Shown piece by piece: positions 27,121-55,238 of a stretch of DNA of 64,000 nt (position 1 is its first letter; the number at the start of each line of letters is the position of its first letter). The position numbers and the translations under genes were made by a program. Under the pieces are notes generated by a model. That model worked only from the letters and a program-made list of their open reading frames with translations, did no database searches and had not been told where the DNA came from. The stretch is taken from positions 1-64,000 of the IMG/VR virus record IMGVR_UViG_3300045988_175722. One strand, given 5' to 3'. The DNA comes from a virus.

Positions 27121-27717
27121 AAATATAAAGATATGAAGAAATAAACAAAGATATACTGCATGACATCATGCGCCATCAGAGATACACTACATTTCTGATA
27201 CGTTTTATTTTGTTAGACAACCAAGCCATCGGTTAAAATGGCAGGAAGACCTGACGGGCGATAGGTGGACGCTGGAAAGCTTCACTAATAAGTTAATACC
27301 CCCCCCACCGCAGTCTTGGAACGATAAGTGAAAAGTCTGATTAAAAAGCCTGAGGAATACCTATCGATGCGGTAAGCGGGGCATCCTCGAAATTTGGCGG
27401 TGTCGCCCCGAAGGTCTTCTTTCTTTGACAATATTGATATAAAGAGAATAGGGGAGGCATTCTGGAAACACTCTTATGCAAGGGTAGTGGGAGCAGTAAT
27501 GTCCCATGACTACGCTGCACACTGCATCTTTGCCGGCACTATGGAGAGACGTGATTAGCGTTATGCCGCGTCTTTGCGTTAGAATATTCAGCGGGCGAGT
27601 ACCACAGATTCACAAATGCTCCGACCGCTCGCTCTAGAATATAACCCGGCAAGGTGTAAACACTTGAAGTTTGGCCTACCCTCTGCGCCCCCGTCCCCAG
27701 CGATTCCATCGCTGGTC
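27121..27717 (+). ncRNA. candidate large non-coding RNA or cis element (ORF-free region ending in an HP32 hairpin)
   Basis: No ORF of 60 aa or more on either strand in the track between 27120 and 27780. Not AT-rich, unlike other spacers. Contains a C8 run (27299-27306). Ends with HP32 copy 4, as protein-coding units do. Confidence 0.3.
27685..27717 (+). repeat. HP32 hairpin element copy 4
   Basis: GCGCCCCCGTCC CCAGCGAT TCC ATCGCTGG TC. 63 nt upstream of ATG 27780. Confidence 0.85.
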
Positions 27718-53588: not shown

Positions 53589-54359
53589 TTAAAATAGGCT
53601 AGGCTGCGCCATTTCGAGCTGAATACGCTTGCAAGCCTTGTCGTAATATTCTTTGTTCAGCTCAAAGCCGATGAAGTTCCTCTTTTCTCTGATGCAGGCG
53701 ATTGCGGTAGTTCCGCTGCCCATGCAATTATCGAGAACGCACCCCCCCACATTAGTATAAGTACATATAAGATACTGGATAAGAGCTACTGGCTTTTGCG
53801 TAGGGTGGAAGGTATCGGCAGAATGTTCTTTATCAAAGCAGATAATGCTCTTTGGGAATTTTTCATCTGATACGATAGTAGGCACTTCTTTATGGTCTCC
53901 ATAACAGCCTCGCTTCAAACTATGCGAGCCATCTCCCCTTCGATGATTCCTTTGATGTGGCGCACATTTTACCATTTGAGGATTGTAGACAGGTTGTTTT
54001 CGATAAAATACAGCAATATCCTCATGTGAGCGCAGAGGCATCTTGTTGGCATTCAGAAAGCCTGTTACCCGTTGTTTGCTCCAAATAAGATTATATTTCC
54101 AGAGTTTCGGCTGCGACATCATAAGTTGTGCGGTAAACATACCTTGGCAGAAAAGGATAATGGCTGCATTGGGTTTGGTTATGCGCAGATATTCCTTCCA
54201 TAATGGCTCAAGCGGGATAATGCTATCCCAGCCACCGCCCTCACTCTTTTTATTGAGAACGCCATACGGCAAATCGCAGATAATGCAATCCACGCTTGCG
54301 TCCGGAATCTTTTTCATTCCTACCAGGCAATCCTCATTATAAATCTTATTTAATTCCAT
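53589..54359 (-). CDS. DNA methyltransferase, N4/N6 beta-class
   Basis: 256 aa. Motif IV variant CIICDLPYG is near the N-terminus. The SAM motif CMGSGTTAIAC followed by RNFIGFELNKEYY is near the C-terminus, the typical N6_N4_Mtase order. Confidence 0.8.
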   Translation of the reverse strand: MELNKIYNEDCLVGMKKIPDASVDCIICDLPYGVLNKKSEGGGWDSIIPLEPLWKEYLRITKPNAAIILFCQGMFTAQLMMSQPKLWKYNLIWSKQRVTGFLNANKMPLRSHEDIAVFYRKQPVYNPQMVKCAPHQRNHRRGDGSHSLKRGCYGDHKEVPTIVSDEKFPKSIICFDKEHSADTFHPTQKPVALIQYLICTYTNVGGCVLDNCMGSGTTAIACIREKRNFIGFELNKEYYDKACKRIQLEMAQPSLF

Positions 54360-54379: not shown

Positions 54380-54977
54380 TCAATTAAACCATTTTAGAAT
54401 AGTTTCTCCTTTATATCCTTTTTCCCAGATAAACCAGGCATAGGCTTGAGCGCTACCAGCCATTGCATCGAAATCGCCATTGGCAGCACATTTCAGTCGT
54501 GAACTGCTTACCCATACTCTGCATGGAGGCTGTGTTCTAAACAGATGCCTTCTTCCTTTCCCTTCAAGAAAAGTAAGTTTTAGAAACATAGCAACCTTTC
54601 TTCCTTTCGGAATAATCTGCAAAGCCTTTTCCACGAACTCTAACGCAAATCGGTATGGTGGATTGGTAACAATATCTCCATTCCATTCTATGTTGTCGAT
54701 GGAAAGAAAATCTGCAACATCACCATAACCTCTATCTATCAAGTCACGGCTGACTACATCGTAGCCATGAGCCTTTAACACTTTGCTAATATGTCCTTCG
54801 CCGCAGGAAGGTTCCAAAATTACCCCCCCCCGTAAAATGCTCTATCTTACAGAGCCATTCGGTAGCTGCGGGTTCTGTGGCATAGTAGTCTTCTTTTTGG
54901 CGCTCACCATTTTTGTGATTGCTAGCGCCCAAAGTCTTAAACACGGCAGCCTTGCCGCCTACCCAGTCTTTTGCCAT
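54380..54977 (-). pseudogene. N6-adenine DNA methyltransferase, out of frame at a G9 homopolymer (phase-OFF state or sequencing error)
   Basis: N-terminal ORF 54786..54977 (...DYYATEPAATEWLCKIEHFTGGG) and C-terminal ORF 54380..54817 (LEPSCGEGH...TNPPY) are in different frames. They are joined by C9 on the + strand (54823-54831). G8 would give ...HFTGGVILEPSCGEG... in frame. Confidence 0.75.
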
Positions 54978-55010: not shown

Positions 55011-55238
55011 CTATCTTAACTTTCCAATGTGCCATTTCGAGCACACCTTGCACTGATAAGCCGTATATCCTGCAGCCATGATTTTTTGGTGCAGCTTCAG
55101 AAACTCGCAGGCTTCATCTTCACTCTCGTAGGCAACCTTGGCTTTCCAGCCGTGACTGCTTTTCCTCGTCCAGTGTTCCGGATCAGGACGGAAGGGAGGT
55201 ATCTTGTTGGGATGATGATTTCCGTATCGCTTACTCAT
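55011..55238 (-). CDS. hypothetical small protein
   Basis: 75 aa. C-terminal CKVCSKWH motif. Confidence 0.6.
   Translation of the reverse strand: MSKRYGNHHPNKIPPFRPDPEHWTRKSSHGWKAKVAYESEDEACEFLKLHQKIMAAGYTAYQCKVCSKWHIGKLR

Follow-up and report, generated by a model that had tools for sequence, protein, structure and literature searches.

A length-variable polyG tract as a probable contingency locus in an orphan DNA methyltransferase gene of an uncultured human-gut phage clade

In bacteria, phase-variable methyltransferases are textbook knowledge. Homopolymers of seven to ten G or C residues undergo slipped-strand mispairing at a high rate, on which phase variation in Campylobacter, Neisseria, Haemophilus and Helicobacter rests, that of methyltransferases among it; the phasevarions are known from Type III mod genes of Haemophilus, Neisseria, Helicobacter and Moraxella. 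In phages, contingency loci have been shown only recently and in few cultured phages. Here we describe a run of nine G residues (G9) that splits a DNA methyltransferase gene, hereafter MTase1, in the virus record IMGVR_UViG_3300045988_175722 of IMG/VR. The stretch analysed (the window) comprises positions 1 to 64,000 of this 104,205-bp human-gut phage record, which has inverted terminal repeats and is rated complete. We think it probable that the G9 tract is a contingency locus, that is, a hypermutable simple sequence repeat (SSR), in a phage-borne orphan N6-adenine DNA methyltransferase, and that this record caught the gene in its OFF phase.

A bacterial counterpart is the polyG-controlled Type IIG gene cj0031 of Campylobacter jejuni, which encodes a phase-variable methyltransferase (PMC4889913). 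Among phages, an A-run in agt of T2 toggles a DNA glucosyltransferase, where the OFF state evades TgvAB and the ON state evades McrA/BC, and rIIA of T4 is also a phage contingency locus (Gomez, Barrick and Waters, bioRxiv 10.1101/2025.10.21.683753). As cited in that preprint, Campylobacter Fletchervirus phages have polyG tracts in their receptor-binding genes (Sorensen et al. 2021, Cell Rep 35:109214), and a methylase gene of Bordetella phage BPP-1 was noted to contain a polyG (Liu et al. 2004).

MTase1 resembles the bacterial phase-variable methyltransferases in that the repeat lies in the 5′ part of the open reading frame (ORF), gain or loss of one unit is what switches methylation in those systems, and lengths are polymorphic between close isolates. 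However, the bacterial systems are chromosomal, whereas MTase1 is located on a virulent-type or plasmid-like phage genome, and its product is a 198-aa orphan with neither a restriction partner nearby nor a separate target-recognition domain; the likely object of its mark is the phage's own DNA. MTase1 does not qualify as a phasevarion gene, as no cognate res/hsd partner was identified near it. The likeness to T2 agt is that homopolymer frameshifts fall in a phage DNA-modification gene, and the two-defence logic of T2 is, by analogy, the one we propose for MTase1. That said, T2 uses A runs in a glucosyltransferase gene and the switch was shown in culture, whereas our case is an uncultured clade of gut phages with polyG in its adenine (and cytosine) methylases, with many switches confined to modification genes and with support that is entirely population-genomic.

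The minus strand reads nine consecutive G from 54831 to 54823, corresponding to the nine C that a preliminary description of the window had reported on the plus strand. In the upstream frame, translation starts at the ATG at 54977 and proceeds as MAKDW...DYYATEPAATEWLCKIEHFTGGG, after which it runs into NFGTFLRRRTY and a stop at 54786-54788. The downstream frame is entered at 54817 and reads (L/M)EPSCGEGHISKVLKAHGY...TNPPYRF...KWFN before its stop. The two frames on either side of the tract, the S-adenosylmethionine-binding motif I and the catalytic NPPY of the downstream part had all been recognized in the preliminary description and are found here as well, although the stop lies 11 codons past the third Gly and not 10. 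When the tract is read one base shorter, the halves join seamlessly, as had been proposed, into a protein of 198 aa instead of about 199 (P0001, ...HFTGGVILEPSCGEG...). At this tract, lengths G5, G8 and G11 are in frame and G6, G7, G9 and G10 are out of frame; the out-of-frame lengths give products of 51-63 aa, compared with 198 aa for G8. Coordinates are collected in Table 1.

P0001 gave one match to phrog_799, annotated as DNA methyltransferase, over residues 2-198 (E 2.8e-67), and because this match runs full-length across the junction we take the two halves to be one gene. More than 7,900 homologues were retrieved in a database search, nearly all of 196-202 aa, and DYYATEP (residues 30-36), LEPSCGEG (54-61) and NPPY (105-108) are invariant among the 17 that were aligned. 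These give the motif order X, I, IV expected of gamma-class N6-adenine methyltransferases, the same order as in M.TaqI, M.BseCI and CamA, where motif X likewise contains TP. These three enzymes (M.TaqI as 1aqj/1g38/2adm) are also the Foldseek top matches of an AlphaFold model of MTase1 (predicted local distance difference test score, pLDDT, 62.7) with E of about 1e-5 and TM of about 0.5; the tRNA N6-methyladenine (m6A) enzyme TrmM ranks among the top matches too. Sequence identity to the M.TaqI-type enzymes is 14-18%, with no significant sequence match to any solved structure: a profile search of PDB sequences returned nothing meaningful, just DARPin noise and TehB. M.TaqI has a C-terminal DNA-recognition domain, whereas P0001 ends at residue 198, just past the Rossmann core, and a separate C-terminal target-recognition domain is absent. 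We read MTase1 as the catalytic domain of a gamma-class (M.TaqI-like) N6-adenine methyltransferase without a separate recognition domain, and the end-to-end phrog_799 match, with which the fold ranking agrees, supports the DNA methyltransferase call of the preliminary description.

Tract length was compared among relatives by several routes, of which only the flank-pattern and tblastn scans give unbiased allele frequencies. The flank-pattern scans covered three collections, allowed a free gap between the flanks and were independent of reading frame. They returned 25 loci, duplicates included, with pure tracts of G5 (n=2), G6 (n=2), G7 (n=5), G8 (n=6) and G9 (n=3) and with interrupted in-frame tracts reading GGGGGAGG (n=6) or GGGGGGAG (n=1). 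From the tblastn-based scan came ACC-G7 (in frame), TAC-G4 and further G5, G7 and G9 alleles. Together the two scans cover about 36 non-redundant genomes, about 14 of which are predicted to carry a functional MTase1; 13 are OFF by tract length alone, two by tract length plus another lesion, and seven are in frame and broken elsewhere. A further lesion is thus absent from 13 of the 15 alleles that the tract turns OFF, and no single allele is commoner in this unbiased set than in-frame G8. The closest full-length proteins, 93-96% identical and reached by a route that yields in-frame genes only, read FTGGVILEPSCGEG, and at the DNA level the G9 of the window corresponds to G8 in them. Exact-peptide look-ups in a collection of 15 billion proteins placed the N-terminal haplotype of the window on contigs with G9 (n=18), G7 (n=39), G6 (n=5) and G10 (n=1), and an exact look-up of the full-length G8 protein of this haplotype found it on 2-4 contigs; a second haplotype occurs with G7 on 344 contigs, G10 on 20 and G9 on more than 100. 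Across assemblies from public gut metagenomes, lengths from G5 to G10 occur at the same site. In the tblastn scan, homologues of 83% identity or less have no G run but FEGR, FDGR or FNGP at this place and are one residue shorter, and since the run is missing from these more distant homologues, the polyG tract is a derived feature of one clade.

Different lengths are found on backbones that are otherwise nearly the same. A G8 and a G7 locus (L033 and L035; L numbers denote loci) differ at none of 2036 flanking positions; a G9 and a G8 locus (L131 and L134) differ by one substitution in 2040 and by four in 5762 nt; and three G9/G7 pairs (L126/L137, L129/L141, L130/L146) show 2-8 differences per 2040 nt, with two substitutions in the first of them. 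L128, a G9 locus identical to the window, differs from the G8 locus L136 at 11 of 2040 positions, and this window lineage is 0.5-0.6% from the G8 genomes L136 and L135. In runs SRR31495738 and SRR31495748, the backbones with G8 and G9 are four substitutions apart in 5.8 kb. Three contigs from three different, unrelated SRA runs (L001, L002 and L003) have no substitution in 5725 nt and differ solely in how long four other polyG tracts of the MTase1 module are; as a control, the seven A/T runs of six or more in the same stretch of those contigs, one of them a 12-mer, are invariant. On a maximum-likelihood tree of 50 loci, built from 2269 flanking columns with the tract left out, tract length changes at least 15 times, against zero changes in the interrupted-tract clade (six rows), and frameshift indels elsewhere in MTase1 amount to three singletons among the 50 rows. 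The length of the MTase1 tract is polymorphic among near-identical genomes and changes far more often than point substitutions occur, which is the behaviour of a contingency locus. The expansions and contractions among relatives, spanning G5-G10, are compatible with reversibility and are no proof of it.

The OFF alleles bear the marks of selection for a working enzyme. Nonsynonymous to synonymous rate ratios (dN/dS, Nei-Gojobori) over both MTase1 halves are 0.079 for ON-ON, 0.078 for ON-OFF and 0.087 for OFF-OFF pairs, and because the value is about 0.08 in OFF as in ON alleles, the former are not old pseudogenes. A plain pseudogene was ruled out by the intact halves, the OFF-OFF ratio and the existence of an exact ON allele. 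The locus thus combines a frame-switching tract inside an ORF, length polymorphism and intact OFF alleles under purifying selection, three of the features that define an SSR contingency locus, and the preliminary idea of a phase-variable phage methylase gains support from these OFF alleles and from the near-identical backbones with different tract lengths. A different kind of loss is seen where the tract is short or interrupted. The G5 alleles, which belong to four independent lineages (L019/L028, L048, L053/L054 and L121), are each disrupted at another place by a stop or a frameshift; the knock-outs of the GGGGGAGG clade are a change of ATG to ATA (L014/L030), of NPPY to NTPY (L031) and a frameshift (L032); and half of the interrupted-tract alleles are knocked out by other lesions. 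Stable tracts, in other words, go with irreversible knock-outs. From these sequences the gene looks like one that is kept in the long term yet is repeatedly selected OFF, and the low dN/dS together with the knock-outs in stable-tract alleles describes a setting in which a reversible switch would pay.

The alternative that survives best is a non-adaptive hot spot, in which the tract is a fragile site in a dispensable accessory gene and the methylase is lost and regained neutrally with no bet-hedging. The gene is inactive in about 60% of the sampled genomes, so the enzyme is dispensable in many settings, and the second lesions in some OFF alleles (L023, L120), the extra lesion in every G5 allele and the presence of G9 alleles on diverged backbones all fit such a site. 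What it leaves unexplained is a dN/dS of about 0.08 even between OFF alleles, and also the history of the tract, which arose in a tract-less family and stays pure G over about 5-10% divergence though other Thr, Gly and Val codons could give TGGV. Furthermore, nearly all polyG runs are in genes for DNA modification, where the coding strand is mostly the one that carries the G, and the independent knock-outs gained by the stable interrupted alleles point to repeated selection of the OFF state and not just to drift. We consider a neutral hot spot unlikely.

Another alternative is that G9 is expressed at full length through programmed +1 ribosomal frameshifting or RNA-polymerase slippage. Long homopolymers can give transcriptional slippage and frameshifting (reviewed in PMC5009743), tRNA-Gly can re-pair on GGG GGG G, and both halves of the gene are intact. 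A programmed site should nevertheless keep its length, whereas here it ranges from G5 to G10 with in-frame G8 the commonest, and G7 and G10 place a TAA directly after the run, so no common rule fits all alleles; a conserved stimulatory element was not seen, though no search was made for one. Given this range of lengths and the common in-frame G8 and interrupted in-frame alleles, a programmed frameshift or slippage site was ruled out, and recoding is in our opinion very improbable, though the G9 allele may leak at a low level. A homopolymer assembly or sequencing error in this record, with a true G8 tract and an intact gene, was the alternative named in the preliminary description, and even for a metagenome-assembled virus genome with the classic site of indel errors it is extremely improbable and excluded as a general explanation, as an ENA assembly (L128, ERZ28576153, sample SAMEA4545385, 104,194 bp) matches the window at every position over 6192 nt, G9 included, the exact G9 peptide is present on 18-22 contigs of ENA assemblies and of Logan assemblies of public runs, with at least 10 samples represented, and A/T runs of up to 12 are invariant in the same contigs as the varying tracts.

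Several points weigh against our interpretation of a contingency locus in a DNA methyltransferase gene. All tract-length evidence comes from consensus assemblies of different samples, and the loci fetched through exact peptides were preselected for one tract length. G9 with the N-terminal haplotype of the window is also found on backbones that have diverged by 6-9%, and some OFF alleles may persist for long or spread by recombination and would then not be flipping every few generations. The rate and the reversibility of switching within one population are what we infer from sequence comparison, and the selective agent is a proposed one. On the side of the enzyme, Pfam and NCBIfam gave sub-threshold TehB-type matches only, the AlphaFold model was built from a shallow alignment and is mediocre (predicted TM score, pTM, 0.69, besides the low pLDDT), and that the substrate is DNA and not RNA is deduced from family annotation, fold ranking and gene context.

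Table 1. Positions of the methyltransferase genes, polyG tracts and neighbouring features; numbering follows the window, beyond 64,000 that of the full record.
Feature	Position	Strand	Remarks
MTase1	54380..54977	-	Frameshifted gene of a 198-aa phrog_799 methyltransferase, OFF phase; read-through protein P0001
N-terminal fragment of MTase1	54786..54977	-	OFF-phase product of 63 aa with an 11-residue out-of-frame tail; contains motif-X-like DYYATEP (54870-54890)
Hypervariable polyG tract of MTase1	54823..54831	-	G9 here; codons 49-52 of MTase1
Remaining two thirds of MTase1	54380..54817	-	Other frame; motif I LEPSCGEG 54794-54817; catalytic NPPY 54653-54664; no lesions
MTase2	53589..54359	-	N6/N4 DNA methyltransferase, 256 aa, intact; PF01555 E 4.3e-31, profile 1-219 of 221; phrog_67
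Second variable polyG tract, inside MTase2	53742..53748	-	G7 here, in frame (ON); C7 on the plus strand
ORF upstream of MTase1	55011..55238	-	75 aa
C8 run	27299..27306	+	
Long ORF downstream of C8	27780..31460		1226 aa
Cluster of G/C runs	77322..80544		Outside the window; L042 13322-16544

MTase1 is followed 20 nt downstream, on the same strand, by a second and intact methyltransferase gene, MTase2, which contains its own variable polyG tract. The MTase2 tract is in frame at 42 of 55 related loci and out of frame at the other 13 (G6, G8, G9 and variants), and MTase1 and MTase2 are found in each of the four possible ON/OFF combinations. The near-identical loci L131 and L134 differ at their MTase2 and D12 methylase tracts too. 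A scan of the window agrees with the preliminary description that the only G/C run of eight or more besides the MTase1 tract is the C8 run on the plus strand; the shorter MTase2 tract had gone unmentioned there. The C8 run lies in a stretch without any ORF of at least 60 aa, about 470 nt upstream of a 1226-aa ORF for which there was no Pfam match; the flank-pattern scan located its flanks in no other viral contig, so the run provides no same-length control.

Over the 104-kb genome, three runs of nine or more are seen compared with about 0.27 expected from base composition, and 10 of the 12 G/C runs of seven or more fall in two modification regions making up 4.7% of the genome (binomial P 3e-12). 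Two of these ten are in the MTase1/MTase2 pair and eight are outside the window at 77.3-80.6 kb; most have G on the coding strand, one being a C9. The eight runs, of 7-9 residues within 3.2 kb, are in and around a C5-cytosine methylase of 433 aa (PF00145, E 1.7e-50) that looks circularly permuted, and the same cluster is found in two relatives (G003 and G005). It also touches a string of ORFs of 46-73 aa with ...EYE/EYD-like tails. In a third relative of 105 kb (G001), all four G runs of seven or more are inside the 3.5-kb module to which MTase1 belongs. Among relatives the polyG runs of that module are found at the same places again and again, their G always on the coding strand and their length in every case variable: two lie between a holin gene and a PAPS-reductase-like gene, the latter contains one itself, MTase1 and MTase2 have one each, and a D12 methylase has two. 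In many of the loci L001-L004, L013 and L125-L146, MTase1-MTase2 is flanked by a gene of the PAPS-reductase family (PF01507) and by a methylase of the D12/Dam class (PF02086), both of which the window phage lacks. In L024 (IMGVR_UViG_3300045988_161142), about 680 extra bases lie between MTase1 and MTase2 with a G7 tract of their own (gattccaaGGGGGGGtaaattgc), suggesting from sequence another polyG-bearing cassette gene.

The neighbours of MTase1 are the second methylase, small ORFs without a family match and a large terminase-like ORF of 667 aa; no nuclease gene was identified among them. Directly upstream, the 75-aa ORF has a C-terminal CKVCSKWH, possibly a zinc ribbon, and its position is kept in relatives as a gene of 73-80 aa; it has no family match in Pfam or PHROG. 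Megablast of 3.2 kb against a GenBank phage collection gave no match. One relative was binned with an uncultured Prevotella genome, and Prevotella is probably the host of the clade.

The mechanism that we propose for the contingency locus is as follows. Slipped-strand mispairing during phage DNA replication would add or remove one G, so that variants of plus or minus one G would arise in every burst. Progeny with G8 would make the full 198-aa enzyme (ON), while in those with G6, G7, G9 or G10 translation would end before motif I and NPPY (OFF), and progeny would hence differ in carrying the m6A mark of MTase1, at a motif that is itself presumed. ON would be favoured in hosts whose restriction enzymes the mark blocks, and OFF where the host has methylation-dependent defences or the enzyme is costly; its use is probably bet-hedging between two kinds of host. 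Similar switches would act in MTase2 and the C5-cytosine methylase region and, in relatives, in the D12 methylase and the PAPS-reductase-like gene, and a phage population could then carry many combinations of DNA marks. Whether the clade carries an "epigenetic phasome" is to us an evenly balanced question: at least ten polyG switches confined to DNA-modification genes, namely two or three adenine methylases, the PAPS-reductase-like enzyme and the C5-cytosine methylase core with its small neighbouring ORFs, would let the virions of each burst vary in their combinations of marks as a combinatorial counter-defence. If the phage persists as a plasmid, such switching would also be a possible source of epigenetic heterogeneity in its host.

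In our literature search we found no paper describing polyG-switched methylases in gut or Prevotella phages. Judged by its sequence pattern, MTase1 belongs to the class of SSR contingency loci and appears to work like a phase-variable methyltransferase, which places the same device in an abundant uncultured lineage of human-gut phages, with evidence from natural populations and hundreds of contigs; a multi-locus arrangement confined to modification genes would be the more novel reading. For gut-virome assemblies, this means that frameshifted methylase genes should not be thrown out as pseudogenes or errors, and that such switching may mislead where phage contigs are linked to hosts by their methylation. 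Of this conserved enzyme, ON and OFF alleles exist side by side and appear to interconvert on near-identical backbones, which suggests that selection on the methylation of phage DNA fluctuates in the gut, probably as the hosts rely now on classical restriction and now on methylation-dependent defence.

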